From positions 145,176 to 209,175 of the forward strand of contig CAWJFL010000007.1 of assembly GCA_963842185.1 (NCBI GenBank): 64,000 bases of DNA. The letters are read 5' to 3'. Position 1 is the first letter of the stretch. Each line of letters starts with the position of its first letter. The position numbers and the translations under genes are program-made. This document shows positions 8,571 through 62,015 of the stretch, one piece after another. The DNA comes from an uncultured Verrucomicrobiae bacterium (GTDB lineage: Bacteria; Verrucomicrobiota; Verrucomicrobiia; Palsa-1439). Below the pieces are notes generated by a model. The model was not told where the DNA came from, ran no database searches, and was given only the letters and a program-made list of their open reading frames with translations.

Positions 8571-9254
8571 ATGGGACAAAAGACGAATCCAATAGGTTTT
8601 CGCGTGTCAGTCACCAAAGACTGGCTGTCGAAGTGGTATGCCGACAAGAAGGACTACGCGACGCTGTTGTTGGAAGACATCAAGATCCGGGAAATCGTAA
8701 AAAAGAAGCTGGCCTCGGCCGCCGTACCGAAAATCGCGATCGAGCGGTATGCGAACCGGGCCCGGATCACCATTTCGACCGCGCGCCCGGGGATTGTCAT
8801 CGGTCGCAAGGGCGCGGAAATCGACAAGTTGAAGGAAGAACTGACCGCGTTGACTGGTAAGGAAGTCTACGTGGATATCGTCGAGGTGAAGACGCCGGAA
8901 ACGGATGCCCAGCTCGTCGCGGAAAACATCGCTCTGCAACTGGAACGCCGGATCAGTTTTCGCCGCGCCATGAAGAAGGCTGTGCAGACCGCCATGGATT
9001 TCGGGGCGCAGGGCATCAAGGTGGCGTGCGGTGGACGGTTGGGAGGCGCCGAACTGGCCCGCCGCGAAAAGTATCGCGTCGGGAAAATCCCGCTGCACAC
9101 GTTGCGCGCGGATATCGATTACGGTTTTGCGGAAGCGCTGACGGTGTACGGGAAGATCGGCGTGAAAGTCTGGGTCTGCAAAGGCGAGCGACCCCTGCGG
9201 CCAGCGGTACAACCCCCGGCAGCGGTGCCCGTTGGTCCGGGCCCGGCGGCGTAG
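8571..9254 (+). CDS. rpsC: 30S ribosomal protein S3
   Basis: [12 protein letters not shown].., a KH-domain [11 protein letters not shown], and [11 protein letters not shown] are canonical S3. Confidence 0.97.
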
Positions 9255-9286
9255 CACGGACGAATTGATAGAAGGATTTCAAGACC

Positions 9287-9697
9287 ATGGCAATGATGCC
9301 CAGCAGAGTGAAGTATCGGAAATCCCAGCGCGGAAGCCGGACCGGCGTCGCGTGGCGCGGGGCCTCGGTTGCATTTGGGGAATATGGTTTGCAGGCGCTG
9401 GAGCGCGCGTGGGTGACCACGACGCAGATCGAGGCCTGTCGTGTCGCCTTATCGCGCAATATGAAGCGGCGTGGCAAGTTGTGGATCCGGGTGTTTCCGG
9501 ACAAGCCGATCACCAAGCGCCCGCCAGAGACGCGCATGGGCAAAGGCAAAGGTCCACCCGAGACCTGGGTGGTTGTCGTGCGACCGGGAAATGTGCTGTT
9601 TGAACTGGGTGGTGTGACGGAGGTCCTGGCCCGCGAGTCATTTCGGCTGGCGGCGTCGAAGTTGCCAATTGCAACGCGTTTTGTAGCAAGGCGATAG
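9287..9697 (+). CDS. rplP: 50S ribosomal protein L16
   Basis: [22 protein letters not shown] is canonical L16. The true start may be one of the first Met codons. Confidence 0.96.
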
Positions 9698-9705
9698 CGA
9701 ACGAC

Positions 9706-9918
9706 ATGAAAGCCAAAGAAATCCGTGAGTTGACAGATGCAGAGGCGCAGGCCAAACTGCGTGATCTTCGGCAGGAAATGTTTAACCTGCGGCTCCAGCA
9801 GCAAACGGCTCGTCTCGAGCGTCCCAGCCGGATTCGCGAAGTGCGACGGGATATGGCGCGGCTTGAGACCGTATTGAGAGAGCGGCAGCTTCGACCGGCG
9901 ACGACGCCGGCCAAGTGA
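9706..9918 (+). CDS. rpmC: 50S ribosomal protein L29
   Basis: 70 aa with [18 protein letters not shown], in the position after rplP. Confidence 0.93.
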
Positions 9919-10241
9919 TGACGCGAACAGCCGAACAATTTGGATTTATTATGGTGGAGACAGCGACAATCGAAAGCAAGAAGCGGGAATTGGTGGGCGA
10001 AGTTGTTGGCGACAAGATGGAAAAGACCATCGTGGTCGAAGTTGCCCGACGCGTTCGTCATCCCCGCTACCAGAAGGTCATGACGACCTACAAGAAGTTT
10101 TACGCACACGACGAAAAGAGTGAGGCGGGTATGGGGGACAAGGTGCGGATCGTTGAGTCGCGGCCCCTGAGCAAGCTCAAACGCTGGCGGTTGGTCGGCG
10201 TGGTGCAGAAGGCCGCGAGGATCGAGAAGGTCGACGTATGA
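9915..10241 (+). CDS. rpsQ: 30S ribosomal protein S17
   Basis: [48 protein letters not shown] is the S17 core. An alternative ATG at 9951 would give a more typical length. Confidence 0.93.
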
Positions 10242-10603
10242 TTCAGATTCGGACCCATTTGGACGTGGCGGACAATACCGGCGCGCGCGTAGCCTGGGCG
10301 ATCGGCGTTCTGGGACACCAGAAGCGGTATGCGCGGATCGGTGACGTCATCAAGGCGCACGTCAAGGAGGCCTCGCCCGATGGGACCGTAAAAAAGGGCG
10401 AGGTCGTGACCTGTGTGGTGGTGCGGACGAAGTCGCCCTTGCGACGCAACGATGGGTCCTACGTGCGATTCGACAATAACGCCGTGGTGATTATTGACGA
10501 CCAGTTGAATCCGAAAGGGACACGCATTTTCGGTCCCGTGGCGCGTGAGTTGCGTGACAAGAATTTTACAAAAATTATTTCGCTTGCTCCCGAGGTACTC
10601 TAG
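10238..10603 (+). CDS. rplN: 50S ribosomal protein L14
   Basis: [39 protein letters not shown] is canonical L14. Confidence 0.97.
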
Positions 10604-10606
10604 GCC

Positions 10607-10888
10607 ATGAAGAATCTGGCAGTCAAAAAGGACGACATGGTTGTGGTGCTTTCGGGGGAGGACAAAGGGAAGGTCGGCCGGGTGCTGGCGGCATTTCCCG
10701 AAAAGCAACGCGTGTTGGTCGAGGGTATAAACGTGATCAGCAAGGCGTTGCGCAAGAGTCAGAACAATCCCAAGGGCGGCATCATTACCAAAGAAGGTCC
10801 GATTCACATTTCGAAAGTGATGAAACAGGATCGCCATGAAGCGCGGAAGAAGAAGCATGGGACCGCGCCCGCGGCCACAGAAGTATAA
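10607..10888 (+). CDS. rplX: 50S ribosomal protein L24
   Basis: A KOW motif ([21 protein letters not shown]) and spc operon order. Confidence 0.93.
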
Positions 10889-11434
10889 GTGAGCGATATG
10901 GCGCAGCTATACGAACATTATAAGAAGAGCGTCGTGGAGCAGCTCATGAAGGGCGGCCATTACACCAACCGGATGCAGGTGCCGAAGGTGGAGAAGGTGG
11001 TCGTGAACATGGGAGTGAACGCGAATCACGACAAAGACGTGATCAACGAAGCCCAGCAGGAATTGGCCACACTCACTGGGCAAAAGGCATTGGTCACGAA
11101 GGCGAAGAAGAGCATTTCGAACTTCAAGGTCCGCAAGGACATGCCCGTGGGTGCAAAGGTGACGTTGCGGGGTCAGCGGATGTACGAATTTCTGGAGCGG
11201 TTCTTCAACGCTGCGTTGCCGCGGATTCGCGACTTTCGCGGGGTCAACCCGCGCGGGTTCGATGGCCGCGGCAGTTACACGATGGGCGTGAAGGACCAGA
11301 CGATTTTTCCCGAAGTGGAACTCGACAAGATCAAGCATAACCTCGGGATGGACGTGACGATTGTGACGACGGCCAACACCGATGCCGAGGCCAAGGAGCT
11401 CCTCAAATTGCTCGGGATGCCGTTCAGCAGTTAA
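10889..11434 (+). CDS. rplE: 50S ribosomal protein L5
   Basis: GTG start. VPKVEKVVVNMGV..ITGQKALVTKAKKSISNFKVR..FRGVNPRGFDGRGSYTMG is canonical L5. Confidence 0.96.
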   Translation: MSDMAQLYEHYKKSVVEQLMKGGHYTNRMQVPKVEKVVVNMGVNANHDKDVINEAQQELATLTGQKALVTKAKKSISNFKVRKDMPVGAKVTLRGQRMYEFLERFFNAALPRIRDFRGVNPRGFDGRGSYTMGVKDQTIFPEVELDKIKHNLGMDVTIVTTANTDAEAKELLKLLGMPFSS

Positions 11435-11445
11435 AGGATTGAGTT

Positions 11446-11631
11446 ATGGCGAAAGTTACCTGGGAAGTGAAGCAGCGGCGGCCGGCCAAGTTCAAAGCGC
11501 GGCAGTACAATCGCTGCCAGAACTGTGGACGGCGCCATGCGTATATCCGGCGGTTCAAGATTTGCCGGATTTGCTTTCGTGAACTGGCCAGTCAGGGCAA
11601 GATCCCGGGTGTGGTGAAGGCGAGTTGGTGA
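11446..11631 (+). CDS. rpsN: 30S ribosomal protein S14, short zinc-binding (type Z) form
   Basis: 61 aa with [16 protein letters not shown], i.e. two CxxC pairs, and a C-terminal KASW. Confidence 0.95.
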
Positions 11632-11632
11632 A

Positions 11633-12034
11633 TTGATGAACGTGACCGATTCCATTGGCGATATGCTGACGCGGATTCGCAACGCGAACTCCGCGCTCAA
11701 GCCGGACGTACTCGTGCCGTATTCGCGACTGAAGGCGGAGATTGCAAAAGTGCTGAAGCGCGAAGGATACCTGGCGGATTTCTATGCGGAGAAGCTGGAG
11801 AACGGCCGTCAGGTATTAAAGATTCAGTTGAAGATCGTCGGCAAAGAGCGGGCGATTGTTGGAATCAAGCGCGTGAGCCGTCCCGGACTGCGGCGGTATG
11901 TCGGTTCGACGGATATTCCGCGCGTACTGGGCGGGATGGGAATATCGATTCTGACAACGTCGCGTGGCGTGATGACCGGTCACGAAGCCAAGAAGGCGAA
12001 ATTGGGCGGTGAACTGTTAGCCTACGTGTGGTGA
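11633..12034 (+). CDS. rpsH: 30S ribosomal protein S8
   Basis: TDSIGDMLTRIRNA..GMGISILTTSRGVMT..GGELLAYVW is canonical S8. Confidence 0.96.
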   Translation: MMNVTDSIGDMLTRIRNANSALKPDVLVPYSRLKAEIAKVLKREGYLADFYAEKLENGRQVLKIQLKIVGKERAIVGIKRVSRPGLRRYVGSTDIPRVLGGMGISILTTSRGVMTGHEAKKAKLGGELLAYVW

Positions 12035-12040
12035 CGCATT

Positions 12041-12601
12041 ATGTCGCGAATTGGAAAAAAGCCCGTTGAGATTCCCGCCAAGACCAGGGTCGAAGTGAAG
12101 GGCCAGGCGATCTCTGTCGAAGGGCCGAAAGGCAAGCTGGAGTGGACCGTACCATCACCGATCAAGGTCGAGGTGAAGGATGGCAAAGTGCTCGCGAGCA
12201 CGACACAGGTGGACCGGGTCGGCAAGTCGCGTTGGGGTTTGTCGCGAAGCCTTATTGCGAACATGGTCAAAGGCGTCAATGAGGGGTACGTAAAGAAGCT
12301 GCTGGTGGAGGGCGTTGGTTTTCGCGCCGCGGTGCAGGGGACAAATTTGCAGATGTCCCTGGGGTATTCCCACCCGATTATTTTCGCCATTCCGAAGGGC
12401 GTGAAGGTTTCGGTGGCTGACACGCAGGACAAGAAGCCGGAGATTACGATTGAGGGACCAGACAAACAAATGATCGGGGAAGTAGCTGCCCGAATTCGGC
12501 AGTTCTATCCTCCCGAGCCGTACAAAGGCAAGGGGATCCGCTACGTCGGGGAGCAGGTACGACGGAAGGCGGGCAAGACCGTTACGACCGCTGGCGGTTA
12601 A
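12041..12601 (+). CDS. rplF: 50S ribosomal protein L6
   Basis: [39 protein letters not shown] is canonical L6. Confidence 0.96.
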
Positions 12602-12615
12602 TTTGGTGTTACGTT

Positions 12616-12972
12616 ATGATTCCACGAACAAGAGTTGAAGCGCGATATCGGCGGCACCTGCGGCTGCGGAAAAAAGTGGGCGGCACGGCGCAGCGTCCGC
12701 GGATGAGTGTCTGCATGACCGGCAAACACATCTATGTACAGTTGATCGATGATGTCAACGGCGTGACCCTGGCATTTGTAAGCACGGCTGGCTCCGACTT
12801 GAAGGGGACGAAAGCGACGGTCGAAGGCGCGAAGAAAGTTGGCCAACTCGCGGCGCAGAAGGCGAAAGCCAAGAACATCACCGAGGTCATTTTTGATCGC
12901 GGCGGATTGCGGTATCACGGACGCGTCAAAGCATTGGCGGATGCGGCGCGCGAAGCGGGATTGAAATTCTAA
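12616..12972 (+). CDS. rplR: 50S ribosomal protein L18
   Basis: [20 protein letters not shown].. and [26 protein letters not shown] are L18 motifs. Confidence 0.95.
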
Positions 12973-40002: not shown

Positions 40003-41034
<1,032 letters not shown>

Positions 41035-41038
41035 GGAT

Positions 41039-42538
41039 ATGTGGATCTCTCACTTAACTGCGGAGAATGTTCGCTCCTTTCCGGAGGTCGAAGTCGCCTT
41101 CTCACGCCGGATCAACGTTCTCATAGGACAGAACAACTCCGGCAAGTCCACAATCTTGCGGATTCTGCTCGGTTTGCAGGAAAGTCTTCCCGGTCTAGAC
41201 GCTGCCGATCTTCGGAAGGGGGCGGACAAGGGAGGTGCAGCAGTCACGTTCGACCTAGGGAAAACAAGCTTTCAGCCGAATGATCTCCAAGCAGTTACCT
41301 TTGAACTTGCTAACGGCGTAATATCGCAAAAGAAGTTGCTCCACTCTGGGGACCCAGGGCACCCTAATTCTTTTTCGAATCGAGAGCCTAAGAATTTTAT
41401 CTATCCGTTTCTCACCAAGCGGAAGGTTACAGGATTGGATGAGGCAATCAACGAGGACGTTGCTGCGCAAGTCCCTGCCAATTTTCAGCGACTGAACGCG
41501 AAAATCGACCGAGTCTCAAATCCAGATTTCGTACCGGCCAGTGAGATGTACGAGCGGGCCTGCCGAGACATACTTGGTTTTAGGATTACTTCGGCTCAGT
41601 CAGGGAGTGGGAAAAGAGCCGCCTACACGGTGAGAAACTTTGTCAATATCCCTCTCTCTTCAATGGGTGAGGGAGTGATGAATACTCTGGGGCTTGTTGT
41701 GGATCTTTGTGTGGCGGAGGAAAAGCTTTTCTTGGTCGAAGAACCCGAGAACGACATCCATCCACGGGCTCTCAAAGCCCTAATGAAATTCATATGCGAG
41801 AGGGCTGAGAAGAATCAATTCATCATTACCACGCATTCGAACATTGTGGCCAAGTACTTGGGTGCCCAGGCAGACACCAAGTTGTTTCACGTAACCGTCA
41901 GTTACCCAGACCGCGTTCCGACCTCAGAGATCAAGGAGGTAAGCAACTCCTCCGAAGCCCGTCTGGCAATCTTGGAAGACCTAGGCTACGAACTTGGCGA
42001 TTTTGACCTCTGGGAAGGTTGGCTCTTTCTGGAGGAGTCGTCGTCGGAGAAAATTATACGGCAGTATCTAATACCGTGGTTTGCTCCCAGACTGTCTGGC
42101 CGGCTGCGTACGTTCTCCGCACGGAGCCTGAGCGAGGTCGAGCTGAAGTTCGACGACTTTAACAGTCTGTTTGTATTCCTTCACCTGTCTCCTGCTTACA
42201 AGAACAAGGCATGGGTTATCCTCGACGGGGGTCAAGCCGAGGCCGGAGTCGTCAAGAAGCTGCAAGAGACGTATGGCCGTAGCGGTTGGCGGGCGGACCA
42301 GTTTCTCCAATTCACCCAACACGATTTTGAATCGTACTACCCGAAAGGATTTGCAACCGAAATTGCTGACGCCCTCGGCGAGAAAAACGTCGAGGCGAAG
42401 CGCGCGAAGAAAAAGGCTCTCCTCGATAACATCGAGCAGTGGATAGCGAAGAATGAAGAAGCGGCCAAGAAGGAATTCGCCCTATCCGCAGCAGAAGTGA
42501 TTCAAAGGCTTCAGGCAATCGCAAAGGTCATTTCCTAG
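41039..42538 (+). CDS. ABC/OLD-type AAA ATPase with a C-terminal Toprim-like (DUF4435/OLD-like) region, a putative defence-type NTPase
   Basis: Walker [10 protein letters not shown] at residues ~30-38, Walker B/D-loop [13 protein letters not shown] and H-loop ITTHSN. The C-terminal ~190 aa contain [13 protein letters not shown] and [11 protein letters not shown], which resemble Toprim E and D motifs. The region is clearly AT-richer than the flanks. Confidence 0.75.
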
Positions 42539-42539
42539 C

Positions 42540-44837
42540 ATGAAATTCACTTACAACTGGCTGAAACAATACGTCGATGTTGATTGGTCGCCATCGGAAT
42601 TGGCCGACAAACTGACCTTTGCGGGAATTGAAGTGGAAGACATCACAACTGTTGGGGGCGGCCTGCTCCAGCAGGTCGTCGTCTGCCAGGTTCTGTCCAG
42701 CGACAAGCATCCAAACGCGGACAAGCTTTCGGTATGCCGGGTCAGTGACGGCCACGGCGAACGCCAGATCGTGTGCGGCGCGAAGAATTACAAGGTCGGC
42801 GACAAAGTGCCGTTGGCGTTGCCCGGCATAACCATGGCCAACGGGATGACGATCAAGGAGACGAGGCTGCGGGGTGTGGAATCGCAGGGCATGATGTGCT
42901 CAGCCGAAGAGTTGGGCCTTCCGAAAGGCGAAGACGGGTTGCTGATTTTGCCAGTCGACACGGCTGTTGGCATCACGCTTAGCGATGCCCGCGGCGGCAC
43001 CGACACGGTGTTTGACATTGAGGTCACGCCGAACCGGCCCGACTGGCTCAGCGTCATCGGCATTGCGCGCGAGATCAGCGCCCTGACGGGAAATCCGGTG
43101 AAACGTCCGCATGTTGTCGTCCATGAATCCGGCGAAAACATCGGCAAACTCACTTCGGTCACGATTGAGGCACCCGACCTGTGCCCGCGTTACACGGCGC
43201 GCGTCATCCGCGGCGTGAAAATCGGTCCCAGCCCGGCGTGGTTGAAACAGCTTCTGGAAAAAGTCGGGTTACGGCCGGTCAACAATGTGGTGGATGTAAC
43301 CAACTACGTGCTGCTCGAATGCGGGCATCCGTTGCACGCGTTCGATTACAACCGGTTGGCGGAACATCGGATCGTGGTGCGCCGCGCGGCGAAGGGTGAA
43401 AAGCTCCTGGCCATCGACGACAGTGCACATGAGTTGAGCAACGACATGCTGGTGATCGCCGATGCGAACCGCGCGGTGGCGCTGGCGGGCATCATGGGCG
43501 GCAAGGAGAGCGAGATCCACGATGGCACGACGGACGTATTGCTGGAGAGCGCCTGGTTCCTACCGGCGAACGTTCGCAAGACCTCCAAGCAGTGTGGATT
43601 GTCGAGCGATTCGAGTTATCGATTCGAGCGCGGCGCGGACATCGATGGCGTCATCTGGGCGAGCAACCGCGCGGCGCAATTGATCCAACAATTGGCCGGC
43701 GGACAGGTGGCGACCGGGATCATCGACACACTCGCGAAACCGATTGAGAAACGGCGGGTGCGCTGCCGGTATGCCCAGGTGAACCGTCTGTTGGGTATCG
43801 AGGTGCCGTCCGAGACGGTGAAGAAGATTTTCACGGGGCTGGGACTTTCTATGGTCGGCTCGGCGGGAGCCTCGCCCTCCCATGACTTTGTTGAAGCCGA
43901 AGTGCCGACGTTCCGCGTGGATTTGGAACGGGAGGTCGACCTGATCGAGGAGGTGTGTCGCATTTATGGCGTCGAGAAGATACCGGCAAAGAGGCTGCCG
44001 GCAATTGCCGCGGTGTCCGAGTTCGACACGAAATGGGATGCCCTCGCAAAAGTGCGGCGGGTGTTGACCGCGCTGGGATTTCACGAGGCGCAGAACCAGA
44101 CACTGGTGGGCGAGGGCGAGTTGAAGCTGCAGAATCCATTGAGCGCGGATCAACAGGCGTTGCGAGCGAAGCTTGAGCCCGGCTTGTTGGCGAACCTGCG
44201 CACGAACGTCTCAAGACATCAGTTCGACGTGAAACTGTTTGAAATCGGCCGCGTGTTCGCGTCGGATGGGAAAGAATCGTTGCACGTAGCGCTGGCAGTC
44301 ACCGGGCGGCGCCAACCGGATTCCTGGGAGACAGGCACACGGGAGGCGAAGCTGGATTATTATGACGTGAAGGGCGCGCTGGATGAGGTGGGAGACGCAT
44401 TGGGTGTGCCGCCCACGACCGAGATTCGACAGATTTCGCCCATTCAGGCAAAAAAGCTTGACCTGCGTGATGCGGTGTATGTCGCGGAGTTGGAGCTGGG
44501 ATCCTTGCTGGCGGCGCAAACGCATGAAAAGACATTCCGTGAATTGCCCAAGTTTCCCGCCGTGGTGCGCGATATGGCCTTGGTGGTGGATAAGACGGTG
44601 TCACATGCCGAGATCGTGGCGGCCATCGATAAGGGTCGAAATAAAGTCTTGGAACGGGTCGAACTTTTTGATATATATATGGGGAGTTCGATACCGACGG
44701 GAAAGAAATCAATGGCGTACTCGTTGACGTTCCGCGCGGCGGACAGGACGCTGACGGATGCGGAGGTTAACGGGGCGCATGAACAGTTGAAACGTTCGTT
44801 GGTGCAAACGTTGAAGTGTGAGATTCGCGAGAGCTGA
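42540..44837 (+). CDS. pheT: Phenylalanine--tRNA ligase beta subunit
   Basis: [13 protein letters not shown].., the tRNA-binding domain [12 protein letters not shown], and B3/4, B5 and FDX-ACB regions. Confidence 0.96.
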
Positions 44838-54959: not shown

Positions 54960-56904
<1,945 letters not shown>

Positions 56905-57077
56905 ATGGCCAAGCCTGTTCTAATGACACGTTCGCTTCAGATTTCGTTCCAGGTCTCGCGAATGTGCGAAATATCACCCGCAACCAAGGCAAGCGATGAA
57001 GAGCATTCTATTTGCCGTTTATCTCCTGCTCGGCTGGAGCGCGCTGCCGGCGTTTTCCTGAGGAGGGCAAACCCCCG

Positions 57078-58130
57078 GTGCGTCTTGCCATCATTGGCCT
57101 CGTTCACACGCATGTGCGGGATTTCCTTCCGCTGGCGCTCACCAACACAGAGGTGCAGGTCGTCGGCATCGTGGAACCGGATCAAATGCTGGTGGCGCAA
57201 GCCGCCCGGCGTTGGCAGCTCAACACGAATTTGTTTTACGCCAGCTTGGAAGAGCTGCTGGCCAAAACCAATGTGCAAGCGGTGGCCACATTCACCACCA
57301 CGTTCGATCATCGGCGGGTCGTGGAAGCGTGCGCGCCTCGCGGCATACATGTGATGATGGAAAAGCCGTTGGCCGTGAACATGGAGCACGCCCGCGCGAT
57401 GGCCGCGGCCGCCAAAAAGGGCGGCATTCATCTGCTCGTCAATTACGAGACGACCTGGTATCCCGCCAATCAGGCGGCGTACAAATTGGTCGGGGAACAG
57501 CATGCGATCGGCGACTTGCGCAAGCTCGTGGTTCATGACGGACATCAAGGGCCAAAAGAAATTGGCTGTCCGCCGGAATTTTTGCAATGGATTACCGACC
57601 CGGTGCTGAGCGGTGGCGGGGCGTTGACGGATTTTGGCTGTTACGGCGCCGACCTGATAACCTGGCTGATGCACGGCCAGCGGCCGACGTCGGTGTTCGC
57701 GGTTACCCAGCACATCCAGCCCGATGTCTATCCGAAGGTGGACGATGAAGCGACGATTGTGGTGACGTATCCCAAGGCCCAGGGAATCATCCAGGCGTCC
57801 TGGAATTGGCCGTACAACCGAAAGGACATGGAGATTTACGGTCAGACCGGGTACGTGCTGGTGCCGCGGAGAGATTTGTTGCGCGTGTTGAAGGGAGACC
57901 AGCTTGAGAAGGAAACTCAGACGACCGTCGCGCCGTTGACCGGCCCGGAGGCCGATCCGATCTCTTATTTGGCAGCGGTTGTGCGCGGGGAGATACAACC
58001 CACCGGCGATCTTTCGTCGCTGGACGTGAACATGACCGTGATGGAAATTCTCGACGCCGCCCGCGAGTCCGCGGCGACGGGAAAACGGATTGATCTACCC
58101 GTGGACACTGTCGAAACGAAGCAGAATTAG
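57078..58130 (+). CDS. Gfo/Idh/MocA-family NAD(P)-dependent oxidoreductase
   Basis: The Rossmann start VRLAIIGLVHTH.., MMEKPLA and a typical C-terminal alpha/beta domain. The GTG at 57078 lies 10 nt after GGAGG. A possible signal peptide lies upstream in a different frame (see findings). Confidence 0.85.
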   Translation: MRLAIIGLVHTHVRDFLPLALTNTEVQVVGIVEPDQMLVAQAARRWQLNTNLFYASLEELLAKTNVQAVATFTTTFDHRRVVEACAPRGIHVMMEKPLAVNMEHARAMAAAAKKGGIHLLVNYETTWYPANQAAYKLVGEQHAIGDLRKLVVHDGHQGPKEIGCPPEFLQWITDPVLSGGGALTDFGCYGADLITWLMHGQRPTSVFAVTQHIQPDVYPKVDDEATIVVTYPKAQGIIQASWNWPYNRKDMEIYGQTGYVLVPRRDLLRVLKGDQLEKETQTTVAPLTGPEADPISYLAAVVRGEIQPTGDLSSLDVNMTVMEILDAARESAATGKRIDLPVDTVETKQN

Positions 58131-58250
58131 GAGCGGGAGCATGGACGTAACGCAAACAGGGCGTTAAGCAGGCGATGGCCGAAGTTGCAGCGCGGCGCAG
58201 TCGTACCGGGAGACTTGCCGGAGAAAGTTCGAAGGACTACCGCGTTTTTG

Positions 58251-59204
58251 CTATTGAAGCTTGCTAAGTGACTTCGCGTTCAAATCCAATTGCTGATAGT
58301 AGACCGGTACGCGAAGCGTTTTCCTTAAAGTGGTGAGGTAACGGCCTGCTTCACTGGTAAGAGGGCTTTCGGAAACGACGATCAACTTTTCTGCAACGTT
58401 GCCGGGTGTCCAGTACGCGTACTCAACAAGTTGGCCAATTGCATCGCGCAAGCATGTTCTAATGCATGAGTCCGACTTGATCTCGTAATATGTGTTCTTG
58501 CCTCTGCGGAGGACGACGACATCTATGCGGCCACCTGTACCAGTAGGAACTTCTGTCCCAACGGAGTTCTTTCCATACCGTCCACAAAGTTTCTCGTACA
58601 ACGCCCTTTGGAGTTTGTTCTCGCGGAGCAGGATCGTTTTTATTTCCGTCTTCGTTTGCGCTTTCGCTGATTCACGCTTTGGGCGACACCCTGGCCTGAA
58701 TGCAATTCCAGGCTCTTGCGGAAGATGGGCCTCTTTCCCAGCCAGCCAGATACCTTCGTCGCCAAGAAGAAATTGAAGCTTTGGATTACGCTTAGCGATC
58801 ATACCTAGCAAACGCCTTGCGACTTTCTTATCGGCCAATAAAGATTTGGGCCAGCCGGGAAAGGGTTTAGTTTTCCACCACTTGTCCAAGATCGTATCGC
58901 TGTGGATGTCAGCTAATGAAATTGGTGAAGCCAGCCAAACTAAAGGCTTAAACTCACAATTGTGCCAACTGCTGTTGTTCTCTCGCTCAGCAGGTCCCCG
59001 AACAACCCCCAGTCCAACCACCGCTCTGGTTGTCCCACCGAACCAGAAAAGATAAAAGTCTCCCCTCTTTGCCGTCTTCTTGCATGTCCACTTTCCCTTG
59101 CGGTTCTTGCATTTTCTCTGAAAACGAACGAGCCGGTTACCCGGCTTGCCCGGATCGTCAACCAGAGTCGGCGCGAAAACAATATCCCTTTTTGATTCTG
59201 TCAT
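58251..59204 (-). CDS. Two-domain protein: N-terminal PUA-like (EVE/ASCH-type) domain plus C-terminal PD-(D/E)xK nuclease-like domain
   Basis: N-terminal pattern KRGDFYLFWFGGTTRAVVGLGVV..FKPLVWLASPISLADI. C-terminal pattern GTEVP..GRIDVVVL..YYEIKSD..AIGQLVEY, i.e. E...D...ExK...Q. This is a domain assignment by eye only. The region is AT-richer than its surroundings. Confidence 0.6.
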   Translation of the reverse strand: MTESKRDIVFAPTLVDDPGKPGNRLVRFQRKCKNRKGKWTCKKTAKRGDFYLFWFGGTTRAVVGLGVVRGPAERENNSSWHNCEFKPLVWLASPISLADIHSDTILDKWWKTKPFPGWPKSLLADKKVARRLLGMIAKRNPKLQFLLGDEGIWLAGKEAHLPQEPGIAFRPGCRPKRESAKAQTKTEIKTILLRENKLQRALYEKLCGRYGKNSVGTEVPTGTGGRIDVVVLRRGKNTYYEIKSDSCIRTCLRDAIGQLVEYAYWTPGNVAEKLIVVSESPLTSEAGRYLTTLRKTLRVPVYYQQLDLNAKSLSKLQ

Positions 59205-60217
59205 TCGCAGTCCCTCAGGCTAGAGATTTTCCTTACCAACGTTTTCCAGCGGGGATCACGGCGCAGACTCCGCAAGTCAGAATCTCGCTGCATGTGTGCG
59301 GCATTGCGAAATCCGTGGACAATCGCCAACTCTAAATTTGCAAAAGCTGCTTCGGTCTTGCGCTCCAAGGCATCCAGGCAAGCCAAGCAGTAATACGTCC
59401 AGCCGTATGTTGAATTAAGGCGCAGCGCCTTTTGAAAATAAGGCCGGGCTTGCTTGTTTTGCTTGAGCCGAGTCAGGGTAACGCCAAGATCGTACCATGC
59501 GTAAGAGCATCGTGGATTGAGTTTCGTTGCTCGCAGGAGAACCTCGACCGCCTCAGCCTTGCGCTTCGTCTCCATCAAAATCGATCCGACCAAGTGGACG
59601 ACCTCTTCCGACTTTGGGGTGAGCAATTCAGCGGCACGGGCAAACGACAAGGCCGTGTCCATGCGTTTCGCCCGGTAGTTAATTCGGCCAAGGTTGTAAA
59701 GGATATTGATGGCGGTTCTCTGTGCTGGCGCTAGAACCTTCGCGGCTTCTTTTGAGCGGCCAAGTTCGTCCTGACACAAGGCGAGATTTGTCATTGAAGA
59801 CAGGTGCAAATCTGAGGAGGCCCGTCTCAGTTGGGGATCGCTGGCAATGATGGCGGCGAACTCCGTACTGGCTTCGTCGTGGTGTCCCAAATGGAAAAGC
59901 GCCAAACCCAAATCATAATGGAAGAGGTTTGTCTTTGGGGAAAGTCCGACAGCTTTGCGGAGGGCGGCGACTGCTTCCTCGAAGCGTTCCAGTGCGAGAA
60001 GGATGTCGCCGTAGTTGTACCAAGCGAGTGCTGATTCGGGATTACTTTTGATCGCCTTATCGTAGAGATCGAGCGCCGCTGGCAAGTCGCCACTCCTTTC
60101 GGAGAGCATTCCGGCGTCGAGGAAGAAGTCGTGCAGTTCGTGAATGTCGCCACCGCTGCGCACGCGCTCTTCCGATTCGTGGCCGTTCCTATCGCCGTTT
60201 CCCGGATACGTGCTCAT
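59201..60217 (-). CDS. Tetratricopeptide-repeat protein (about 8 TPR units), translationally coupled to the downstream nuclease-like gene
   Basis: Repeated A..Y/W..G.....A...F..AL...P patterns throughout (e.g. ALAWYNYGDILLALERFEEAVAALRKAVGLSP). The stop overlaps the next start (ATGA at 59201-59204). Confidence 0.8.
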   Translation of the reverse strand: MSTYPGNGDRNGHESEERVRSGGDIHELHDFFLDAGMLSERSGDLPAALDLYDKAIKSNPESALAWYNYGDILLALERFEEAVAALRKAVGLSPKTNLFHYDLGLALFHLGHHDEASTEFAAIIASDPQLRRASSDLHLSSMTNLALCQDELGRSKEAAKVLAPAQRTAINILYNLGRINYRAKRMDTALSFARAAELLTPKSEEVVHLVGSILMETKRKAEAVEVLLRATKLNPRCSYAWYDLGVTLTRLKQNKQARPYFQKALRLNSTYGWTYYCLACLDALERKTEAAFANLELAIVHGFRNAAHMQRDSDLRSLRRDPRWKTLVRKISSLRDCE

Positions 60218-60303
60218 TTGGTTTCGCTCGCCTTTTGGAGGTTAATGCTGGCGAGTCTACCTCCGACAGAGACTCCTCGACAAGCTCGGAATGAAGCACA
60301 AGG

Positions 60304-60326
60304 AGAGGCCGGGCCTACCGGCCTCT
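60304..60326 (-). terminator. Stem-loop downstream of the MFS gene and upstream of the TPR gene, a candidate terminator
   Basis: Perfect 9-bp stem AGAGGCCGG/CCGGCCTCT with a 5-nt loop. The flanks are only moderately T-rich on either strand. Confidence 0.4.
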
Positions 60327-60458
60327 TAGATTTGATTCTCGCGTTGCTTACTGCGGCGACGTGGGCGCAGATTTCTTGGCGCGTTGTTGGGCGCGCTCGA
60401 TGTGAGCGGCGCTCATCCGTGAACCCTGACGACCGCACCGGCGGGAATCTCGCTGGCA

Positions 60459-62015
60459 CTATTGCGAATCGAGGCGGACGGGCCGGTAGCCGCCGCGGGA
60501 TTTGAACCAGGCAATCAGGGCGAGGTAACAGGCCAGCATGAAGAGCGGAAAGAGCGCCATTTTGCCGAGGGCGCTGAACTGGCCGGTCGCGGTTGCGGCT
60601 TTGATTTGTTCCCTGGAACTGTTGTCGATTACGGTGGCCGCTTTGACCGGGTCAATGGCTTTGTAAGCGCCGAGCAAATAGGTTTTCTCGATGGTCACCG
60701 TTTGATACAGCGCTGGGCTGGACGACAGTTGTTTCGTCGCAGACGATTCCTGCAAATAGCCGATGAACGGCGCGCCGAGAATGCCCACGGCCAGCATGCC
60801 GATGCCACCCATCGCGTTCAAGGTGAGCGCGCCGCCTTTGGGGCATTGTTCCGACGTGAGGCCGAGGATGGTCGGCCAGAAGAAGGTTTTGCCGACACCG
60901 TAGAGTGTCGCGGCGGCAAAAATGGCGAGAATGCCCGCGCCGCTGGTGTGGGAGAGCGCGGCGAGTCCAATCGCGGCCAGCGCCGAGCAGGTCGCCAGCA
61001 GGCCGAGCGGGGAAAGTTTGTGGATCAACGGCCCGGCCGAAAAACGCAGGACCGTCATGATCGCCGACGTGTAGACCAGCACCCAGGCGGGATTGTGTCC
61101 GGCGGCCTGCATGGGGGTTTGCATCAGCGAGGTGATCCAGGCGTCCGTGCCCAGTTCGGTCGTCGCCTGGGGCATCATGATGACAATCAGAACGGCGAGG
61201 ATGAAACGGCCAAAGGATTTGGTCACGACGGCGAAAATGGCGACGACGCCACCGGTGAGGCCCCACACCACACCGCTGCTCCAGCCGAACACTTGTCCCA
61301 GTTGGGCGAACACCAGTCCAAATCCGACAAGCGCGCCAAACGCGCCGAGTTCCTTGAGCATGTCCCGATAACCGACGCCGGCCTGTTCGCGTTCGCTTTT
61401 GGGAAATTTCAAACTGAGGAGAATGAAAAAGAAAATGAATGCGGGAATCAAAATCAACCCGAGCGTGATACGCCAGTCGAGATTGTTGGCCAGCGCAATC
61501 GTGCACAGTCCGCCGAGAACCAGTCCGCCCGGCCAGCCGGCGTGCAGACGATTGAGCCATTTCGTTTTGTCCGTGTTGAACATCGTGGCGACGATCGGGT
61601 TGATGTACGCCTCGACGCTGCCATTGCCCAAGCCCAGAATGATGCTGCCCCAATAGAGCAATTGATAGCCGTGTTTCTGCGCGGCAGTCAGCGCATCGCC
61701 GGTCACGCCGTGAATCGAACCGTACGCCGTCATTGCGAGGGTTGCGTAGGCGAGGTAACTGACGAACGAGAAGATCATCGCGACCTTGTAGCCCACGCGG
61801 TCAATGAACAGGCTGAACAGAATAATGCTGACGCCGAACGGCCAGATGCCCGCGCCCTGCAGTTCGCCGACGGCCACCTTGTCGAGGCCGAAGTCGGTGA
61901 CGAATTGCCCGCCGCACAAAATCATGCGGCTGATGAAGGCGTAACTGGTGGTAATGAGAGCGATGAAGCAGCCCCAGAAGAGGAGTTTGTCGTGGCGGTT
62001 GTTCATGGTTGCCAA
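60459..62015 (-). CDS. MFS-type transporter
   Basis: 518 aa with about 12 or more hydrophobic segments arranged as two halves around a central charged loop (KFPKSEREQAGVGYRDMLKE). Substrate unknown. Confidence 0.7.
   Translation of the reverse strand: MATMNNRHDKLLFWGCFIALITTSYAFISRMILCGGQFVTDFGLDKVAVGELQGAGIWPFGVSIILFSLFIDRVGYKVAMIFSFVSYLAYATLAMTAYGSIHGVTGDALTAAQKHGYQLLYWGSIILGLGNGSVEAYINPIVATMFNTDKTKWLNRLHAGWPGGLVLGGLCTIALANNLDWRITLGLILIPAFIFFFILLSLKFPKSEREQAGVGYRDMLKELGAFGALVGFGLVFAQLGQVFGWSSGVVWGLTGGVVAIFAVVTKSFGRFILAVLIVIMMPQATTELGTDAWITSLMQTPMQAAGHNPAWVLVYTSAIMTVLRFSAGPLIHKLSPLGLLATCSALAAIGLAALSHTSGAGILAIFAAATLYGVGKTFFWPTILGLTSEQCPKGGALTLNAMGGIGMLAVGILGAPFIGYLQESSATKQLSSSPALYQTVTIEKTYLLGAYKAIDPVKAATVIDNSSREQIKAATATGQFSALGKMALFPLFMLACYLALIAWFKSRGGYRPVRLDSQ

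Follow-up and report, generated by a model that had tools for sequence, protein, structure and literature searches.

The DNA considered here (the window) is a 64-kb stretch of a contig from an uncultured Verrucomicrobiae bacterium (GenBank assembly GCA_963842185.1, contig CAWJFL010000007.1). Positions 58251-60217 hold two minus-strand genes, an upstream one for a protein of 338 amino acids (aa) made up of tetratricopeptide repeats (TPR), and a downstream one for a 317-aa protein in which an EVE-like domain is fused to a putative PD-(D/E)xK nuclease. The 317-aa protein is the main subject of this report: it is probably a self-contained type IV, modification-dependent restriction endonuclease, with the TPR gene as a co-resident that it does not need. 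The islet contains only these two genes; the genes flanking it are those for an oxidoreductase, a major facilitator superfamily (MFS) transporter, ThiC and TMEM175. Its immediate neighbours are convergent, with the Gfo/Idh/MocA oxidoreductase at 57012-58130 on the plus strand and the MFS transporter at 60459-62015 on the minus strand. The features of the gene pair are as follows.

58251..59204, minus strand: nuclease gene, a 317-aa EVE-like / PD-(D/E)xK fusion (open reading frame and domain evidence)
59201..60217, minus strand: TPR gene, 338 aa, all-TPR (open reading frame, Pfam and NCBIfam matches)
59201..59204, minus strand: stop/start overlap ATGA, joining TPR stop and nuclease start (sequence)
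58755..59204, minus strand: predicted N-terminal EVE-like (PUA superfamily) domain, residues 1-150 (AlphaFold2 model, Foldseek, family conservation)
58254..58712, minus strand: predicted C-terminal PD-(D/E)xK nuclease domain, residues about 165-317 (AlphaFold2 model, Foldseek, PADLOC, relatives)
58419..58523, minus strand: catalytic motif block D228, E241-x-K243, Q258-x3-Y262 (invariant columns of alignment A1)
58133..60433, no strand assigned: inserted 2.3-kb islet between the 3' ends of the convergent oxidoreductase and MFS genes (blastn borders against two related loci, low G+C)

The gene pair and its base composition

Minus-strand bases 59204-59201 read ATGA, the nuclease start overlapping the TPR stop, and a Shine-Dalgarno sequence (GAGGGA) lies 8 nt upstream of the nuclease start, inside the 3' end of the TPR gene. 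The two genes are probably co-transcribed. The original prediction, made from the letters of the sequence, had described this pair of overlapping open reading frames (ORFs), and both were recovered at 317 and 338 aa. Its four spot counts of G+C (28, 26, 33, and 35 per 60 nt) were identical on recomputation, and the peptide motifs that it quoted from the 317-aa protein were found exactly, with GDFYLFWFGG at residue 48, AVVGLGVV at 61, and PISLADI at 94.

Composition was measured against the 64-kb window, with the mean G+C at third codon positions (GC3) taken from its 44 long ORFs and the islet compared with equal-sized windows. The nuclease gene, at a G+C content of 0.499, is the lowest 954-nt stretch of the whole window, and its GC3 of 0.53 compares with a mean of 0.70 (standard deviation 0.06). 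The TPR gene is mildly low (G+C 0.547, GC3 0.625). Taken as a whole, the islet has a G+C content of 0.524 vs. 0.588 for the window (z = -3.5), and only 0.3% of equal-sized windows are this low. The compositional anomaly is genuine, yet uneven between the nuclease and TPR genes.

An EVE-like N-terminal domain

When the 317-aa protein was compared to the 24,736 families of Pfam, EVE was the sole match. It was also the sole match for the corresponding domain of an orthologue, which is 47% identical, and the two N-domains match the same part of the EVE profile. An exhaustive phmmer search with residues 1-150 collected 70 representative clusters, of which 43 had E ≤ 1e-10. In a Pfam scan of 49 members of this family, EVE was detected in 12 (E ≤ 0.01, the best at 3.7e-6), while the partners fused to the N-domain were HNH (26), HNH_2 (23), NOV_C (2), and Mrr_cat (1). 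By these domain assignments, the same N-domain is joined to at least five unrelated nuclease modules.

The domain was modelled with AlphaFold2 (AF2) from an alignment of 49 relatives, giving predicted local confidence (pLDDT) values of 84-98 over residues 1-150; with alignment A1, whose eight sequences have unrelated N-termini that were aligned to it, the same domain scored below 50. The first six Foldseek matches of the model were all solved EVE structures (probability 1.00, E from 9.6e-6 to 1e-3), among them Rpa0253 (2gbs, 9.6e-6), Atu2648 (1zce, 1.6e-5), a Leishmania protein (2ar1), and human THYN1 (3eop, and 5j3e with 5-methylcytosine DNA). Template modelling (TM) scores relative to the target were 0.41-0.63 for the EVE structures, and ASCH and YTH proteins ranked next. 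The N-domain is thus predicted to be a PUA-like beta-barrel, superposable as modelled on solved EVE structures, much as the original prediction had read it. At the sequence level, phmmer and profile searches of the 317-aa protein and of its N-domain against PDB sequences gave nothing significant; because the PDB profile search was non-significant, the EVE assignment rests on fold and on transitive family evidence. Five residues (W39, F53, G66, W109, and P114) are nearly invariant across 48 N-domains, and the domain is basic, with 30 lysines and arginines vs. 14 aspartates and glutamates.

A PD-(D/E)xK C-terminal domain

The active-site residues proposed for the nuclease, D228-x12-E241-x-K243 and Q258, were all found exactly, and D228, E241, K243, Q258, and additionally Y262 are invariant in the eight sequences of alignment A1. 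AF2 models the C-terminal half at a pLDDT of 80-95, with an alpha-beta-beta-beta-alpha-beta fold (helix 185-210; strands 215-220, 226-233, and 236-243; helix 248-265; strand 271-278). The top Foldseek matches of this domain are all PD-(D/E)xK proteins (AF2093, Can2, XisH, Card1, NucS/EndoMS, R2 RLE, and Avs4), at modest E-values of 1e-3 to 1e-2 and probabilities of 0.9-1.0. Invariant residues, model, and fold matches together bear out the PD-(D/E)xK core that had been proposed. NCBIfam yielded nothing useful for the 317-aa protein. Among the PADLOC models, that for LmuA was matched by the nuclease core (E 4e-7, residues 192-263 aligning to positions 519-593 of 655). Identification of the protein as a Lamassu LmuA was considered and rejected, as the nuclease core alone matches: the protein has no LmuA N-terminal region, and the islet has no LmuB SMC gene.

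Relatives of the full protein are very few. A word-indexed search of 5.8 billion proteins returned only seven: the same protein from another assembly (P0001), a full-length orthologue (P0002, 62% identical), and five that share the C-terminal half only (P0003-P0007). The C-domain is common to these five and to plasmid proteins of Vibrio and Pseudoalteromonas. In three of them (P0003, P0005, and P0006), the nuclease module stands behind a different N-domain and directly adjoins an MT-A70 or D12 DNA adenine methyltransferase, with a BglII-like enzyme additionally alongside in two of the three; the Vibrio plasmid relatives are in cassette arrays with TIR, AbiH, and GIY-YIG genes. Since its relatives adjoin methyltransferases and defence cassettes, the C-terminal module can be read, by sequence relationship, as a DNA-cleavage domain employed in restriction and defence settings.

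The same relatives bear on the possibility that the protein is a toxin or an RNA-directed nuclease, its EVE domain reading modified RNA in an abortive-infection or toxin-antitoxin role, with the TPR protein or another factor as antidote. EVE domains are found in toxin-antitoxin settings too, and modified RNA bases are among the ligands they can bind (PMC7641849); the closest folds include stand-alone EVE proteins of unassigned ligand, and the EVE-HNH enzyme VcaM4I becomes a toxic non-specific nuclease when its EVE domain is removed (PMC7897488). However, relatives of the nuclease module adjoin DNA methyltransferases, which implies DNA substrates; the usual partners of the N-domain (HNH, Mrr_cat, and NOV_C) are DNA nucleases; and beside P0002 there is no conserved antitoxin-like small gene, the sole conserved neighbour being a convergent ORF6N gene. 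A toxin or RNA-directed role is considered highly improbable.

The surroundings of one of these relatives, P0003, were also noted. Nearby, at 8845-11526 of its contig (L003), are a BglII/MT-A70 pair, an Abi_C gene, and a transposase, and the contig also has a thymidylate synthase with aGPT-Pplase3/ADDT genes (thymidine hypermodification), which suggests that the region is mobile or phage-derived.

A variable slot between convergent genes

With the flanking MFS transporter as query, a genome scan assigned the source organism to the Verrucomicrobiota, close to MAGs of the subdivision 3 / Limisphaerales type, and gave 64 related loci. In one of these (L056), the MFS and oxidoreductase genes are likewise convergent, and by blastn the homologous flanks sit only 6 bp apart: the slot is empty. 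For this reason, 58133-60433 is an insertion into the spacer. In another (L010), whose MFS transporter is 95% identical, the slot is occupied by a different gene (11717-12964, plus strand), whose 415-aa product has an HNH domain (8.8e-10) and, in its C-terminal region, matches the PADLOC candidate PDC-M36A (4.4e-17). Because a sister genome holds another nuclease at this position, the slot is a small defence hotspot between convergent genes. Horizontal acquisition, suggested earlier from spot counts of G+C, is supported by the composition, the empty slot, and the alternative occupant together. No mobility genes mark the islet junctions, and no flanking direct repeats or target-site duplications were found at them.

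Two observations on frame integrity belong here. A second public assembly (an ENA contig of 46,749 nt) covers the sequence of 58251-60217. In it, the nuclease (P0001) has a 1-nt deletion that gives it the tail ...GR-TSPL* and removes its last 28 aa, and the TPR protein (P0013) is truncated at about residue 236; these disruptions could be either sequencing error or real decay. Within the window itself, thiC (55133-56904, plus strand) is split near 56058-56075 into overlapping ORFs of 343 and 276 aa in different frames, both of which match ThiC_Rad_SAM. This break is either a single-base indel assembly error or a pseudogene.

It could be supposed that the nuclease gene is decaying or has lost its function, or else that it serves in DNA repair or recombination, and that the islet is inert cargo. 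The frame disruptions of P0001 and P0013, the extreme rarity of the nuclease family, and the lack of mobility genes or target duplications at the islet would all agree with this. Against it, both window ORFs are intact with all catalytic residues conserved; the thiC frameshift suggests that these assemblies often contain indel errors; and the 62%-identical orthologue is full-length with all motifs, which implies purifying selection. This explanation is thought very unlikely.

The other low-G+C gene of the window (G+C 0.517, GC3 0.60) is that for a 499-aa AAA_15/AAA_21 ATPase (41039-42538, plus strand), which lies exactly between pheS (40003-41034) and pheT (42540-44837). Its best PADLOC match is AriA (1.6e-24), followed by NsnB and GajA-like models, and it looks like a second defence-type insertion, in this case within the pheST operon.

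The TPR gene and its contexts

The TPR protein matches Pfam TPR_2 (1e-33) and related TPR families, as well as NCBIfam TPR_END_plus (1.3e-20). Its C-terminal domain is of the TPR end-of-group type, and it has no evident signal peptide. Its family is large: over 100 full-length orthologues, each about 340 aa long and 45-89% identical, vs. a single orthologue for the nuclease; a scan of metagenome contigs with the TPR protein added one weak locus. The TPR gene has a low G+C content relative to its flanks in several genomes. Eight TPR contexts beyond the window were examined (percentages are identities to the window protein):

P0008 (89%; L074): an uncharacterised downstream gene overlapped by ATGA; three assemblies break there
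P0009 (88%; L083): a type IV enzyme of the GmrSD family (GmrSD_N 1.2e-19), 48 nt downstream and with a hairpin between
P0010 (82%): surE, 16 nt past the TPR gene
P0012 (77%): a convergent Shedu-like gene
P0014 (66%): a small gene in convergent orientation
P0018 (63%): ThiF/Multi_ubiq genes in convergent orientation, and an integrase
P0022 (62%): a GH9 gene in convergent orientation, with an integrase on the upstream side
P0043 (53%; L088-L095, 22 contigs): dnaB (replicative helicase) begins within the TPR gene, with 4 nt shared

Upstream of P0043 is a divergent operon for a WYL/WCX regulator, a 203-aa protein, and a NucS_C/SduA_C-like nuclease. In none of the eight is the TPR gene followed by the EVE-nuclease. 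The converse case is P0002, the nuclease orthologue, which has no TPR neighbour: an adenine deaminase gene is upstream, and a convergent ORF6N gene is downstream. The two contigs on which it is found (L001 and L002) represent one locus, hence a single context. Its 3' end is overlapped by the ORF6N (KilA-N/Rha-like) gene, at 3713-4345 of L001 and 1265-2092 of L002, minus strand in both. Genes with ORF6N domains are typical of phage and mobile-element regulators.

The original prediction had gone on to propose an undescribed two-component variant, with the TPR protein as an obligate partner. As an obligate pairing this fails, because P0002 has no TPR gene beside it and the genes downstream of the TPR orthologues differ; co-occurrence of the two families is not conserved. 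The TPR family is independently distributed and a variable neighbour of the nuclease.

A looser version would have the pair as a true two-component system in which the TPR protein regulates, senses, or scaffolds, and is perhaps shared by interchangeable type IV nucleases. Several features are in its favour. The genes overlap by ATGA, with the ribosome-binding site of the nuclease within the TPR 3' end, and both are missing from the empty slot of L056 and from L010, so both are part of the inserted DNA. The 88% TPR orthologue has a GmrSD-family enzyme 48 nt downstream; the 89% orthologue also has an ATGA overlap with its downstream gene; and other orthologues are beside Shedu-like, WYL/NucS_C-like, or ThiF/Multi_ubiq genes. 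TPR proteins are also reported to be over-represented, for reasons unexplained, near GmrSD/DUF262 genes in defence islands (Machnicka 2015; PMC4619093).

On the other side, P0002 is directly behind the same leader (described below) without a TPR neighbour, and TPR orthologues are also coupled to dnaB (in 22 contigs), or precede surE or convergent unrelated genes such as GH9. GmrSD and BrxU enzymes act without partners. A hairpin separates the TPR and GmrSD genes in L083, and the families differ in size, with more than 100 TPR orthologues to one nuclease orthologue. EVE-nuclease enzymes likewise act without partners (PMC7897488). A true two-component system is accordingly judged unlikely.

Leader element and hairpin

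Two short elements precede the TPR gene:

60267..60292, minus strand: 26-nt leader element ATTCCGAGCTTGTCGAGGAGTCTCTG, 50-75 nt upstream of the TPR start; common to L074-76 and L001
60304..60326, minus strand: 9-bp G+C-rich hairpin AGAGGCCGG-TAGGC-CCGGCCTCT, between the MFS stop and the TPR leader, with seven G-C pairs

The leader has the consensus form ATTCCGAGCTTGTCGAGGA(A/G)TCT(C/G)TG. It occurs once in the window, where 0.02 matches would be expected by chance. In L074-76 the block is again upstream of the TPR orthologue (918-943 of L074, 50-75 nt from the start in L074), and in L001 it is at 2662-2687, 64-89 nt upstream of the nuclease orthologue P0002, with no TPR gene there; in that genome, then, the nuclease gene stands alone behind the element. 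It was absent from the other ~95 loci with five mismatches allowed, and an Rfam scan of 58100-60500 gave no match. The shared block connects both cassettes, TPR and nuclease, to one common element, which may be a promoter, an operator, a leader, or a cassette boundary.

In viral contigs, 49 exact matches to the 19-mer core of the leader were found. Forty-six of these come from a single family of contigs of ~5 kb, where the core falls within conserved coding sequence and the flanks are unrelated, and two more are coding; these were set aside as coincidence. The match that appears related is at positions 1-25 of L145, a prophage-like IMG/VR contig that terminates in the leader, beyond genes for tail and tape-measure proteins.

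The hairpin, which the original prediction had placed between the MFS side and the TPR gene, is present, and its score is terminator-like on either strand. The idea that it is a repeated element of the REP or attC type was considered and rejected: it is a single copy in the window and common only to L074-76. In L074 the same stem has a different loop and is followed by a T-run. DNA homology of the TPR module between the window and L074 extends from the hairpin (60326) to 59232, about 30 nt short of the TPR stop; past this point, the C-terminal tails of the TPR proteins differ in every orthologue.

Conceivably, the TPR gene and its hairpin-preceded leader (ATTCCGAGCTTGTCGAGGA-TCT-TG) could make up a portable expression platform, or docking site, for interchangeable type IV nucleases, with the TPR protein as a shared regulator or sensor; this is regarded as decidedly improbable. 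To the same doubtful degree, the nucleases would have been inserted directly downstream and translationally coupled: the EVE-PD-(D/E)xK fusion here, the GmrSD-like enzyme in L083, and the uncharacterised gene in L074. If such a platform existed, it would give a function to the long-noted enrichment of TPR genes beside GmrSD-type enzymes.

A probable type IV restriction enzyme

The reading preferred here is that the 317-aa protein is complete in itself as a modification-dependent enzyme; sequence, modelled structure, and analogy all make this probable. Reader and nuclease are on one polypeptide and the reader recombines with different nucleases, as is characteristic of type IV enzymes. The shuffling of the N-domain among HNH, HNH_2, Mrr_cat, and NOV_C nucleases supports the type IV-like restriction activity that had been suggested at the outset. 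There is no methyltransferase gene in or beside the islet, nor is there one at the P0002 locus.

In the mechanism envisaged, the basic EVE-like domain would act on incoming DNA, flipping a modified base into a hydrophobic pocket; judging from the analogous VcaM4I and THYN1, the sensed base would most likely be a modified cytosine such as 5-methylcytosine (5mC) or 5-hydroxymethylcytosine (5hmC). A helical linker is predicted to join this reader to the C-terminal PD-(D/E)xK nuclease (D228, E241, and K243), which may dimerise and cut the DNA nearby. The host would be spared because its own DNA would not carry the sensed modification, so that no methyltransferase would be required. The folds, motifs, domain shuffling, insertion, and absence of a conserved TPR linkage come from the analysis itself; the substrate, base flipping, dimerisation, and anti-phage function are what we infer.

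Certain results weigh against this assignment. The EVE (PF01878) scores are all below the gathering threshold of 23 bits, at 17.7 for the full protein, 19.8 for the isolated domain, and 19.7 for the orthologue domain, and a 48-sequence N-domain profile found no significant match among PDB sequences (the EVE protein 1zce was at E 0.75). PADLOC does not call the 317-aa protein a type IV enzyme. As seen from the nuclease, the lack of a TPR neighbour comes from one independent orthologous context (P0002), and in the window itself expression of the nuclease is probably coupled to the TPR gene, since its start is embedded in the TPR 3' end.

Scans of viral contigs with the nuclease and TPR proteins found no relatives of either, and tblastn against annotated phage genomes gave no match.

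Comparison with known systems

The EVE-nuclease architecture is not new, having already been published (PMC7641849, PMC6765204). EVE-PD(D/E)XK and EVE-HNH are listed among core type IV architectures, and EVE domains in defence contexts are often found solely by sensitive methods (Bell, Wolf and Koonin, 2020; PMC7641849). Lutz et al. (2019; PMC6765204) seldom found methyltransferase genes close to ORFs that encode PUA-domain endonucleases, and the lack of one at the islet agrees with the modification-dependent restriction endonucleases of that study. The feature is a divergent, newly found representative of this known EVE-nuclease type IV class. Like other EVE-PD(D/E)XK and EVE-HNH enzymes, it has an N-terminal reader and a C-terminal nuclease in one polypeptide of ~310 aa without an adjacent methyltransferase, and its EVE domain is fast-evolving, needs sensitive methods for detection, and is shuffled among nuclease types. 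Unlike them, its reader belongs to a divergent EVE-like clade below the Pfam threshold, and its nuclease is of an unnamed PD-(D/E)xK subfamily with a QxxxY motif and no Pfam family, found elsewhere in methyltransferase-linked proteins.

A characterised enzyme for comparison is VcaM4I (Pastor et al., 2021; PMC7897488), whose EVE domain, residues 1-147, binds 5mC or 5hmC by flipping the base into a hydrophobic pocket that includes W82, Y130, Q128, and P24. It acts as a homodimer held by its nuclease domains, with no partner protein. The window protein is similarly built, the EVE domain (1-147 in VcaM4I) leading through a helical linker to a C-terminal nuclease within about 310 aa, and most homologues of its N-domain are HNH fusions as VcaM4I is. 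It differs in that its catalytic domain is PD-(D/E)xK rather than HNH, and VcaM4I is not among its top fold hits.

Other enzymes combine a PUA-superfamily reader with a PD-(D/E)xK nuclease for modification-dependent restriction, namely YenY4I (PUA-DUF3427-PD-(D/E)XK) and PvuRts1I/AbaSI (SRA-PD-(D/E)xK). The 317-aa protein is distinct from YenY4I in having no DUF3427, and from PvuRts1I/AbaSI in having an EVE-like rather than an SRA reader, with a domain order opposite to that of PvuRts1I; no sequence similarity was detected to YenY4I or to PvuRts1I/AbaSI-type enzymes. The likeness to Lamassu, in which LmuA is a Cap4-type nuclease effector, is confined to the match of the C-terminal nuclease region to one PADLOC LmuA model. 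There is no LmuB/SMC partner or LmuA N-terminal region here, and the likeness is at the superfamily level.

As for the TPR gene, all-TPR genes beside type IV genes, as here and in L083, recall the TPR genes near GmrSD/COG1479 (Makarova 2011; Machnicka 2015, PMC4619093). That association, however, is statistical, was made with TPR_15 proteins, and is without demonstrated function. The window TPR protein matches TPR_15 weakly (E 6e-4, below the cutoff), and its orthologues also adjoin dnaB, surE, and GH9 genes. The recurrence of TPR genes beside type IV nucleases, together with the common leader, is a modest lead.

If the prediction holds, an unnamed PD-(D/E)xK cleavage module would be added to the catalogue of modification-dependent restriction enzymes, and a divergent EVE-like reader clade would be gained, with ~70 representative clusters that are mostly HNH fusions and sub-threshold in Pfam. 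Modification-dependent enzymes make useful reagents, both to map modified bases and to detect phages whose genomes are modified. For the Verrucomicrobiota, a poorly studied phylum, the case documents a very small defence hotspot, in which sister genomes hold different nucleases between the same two convergent genes.

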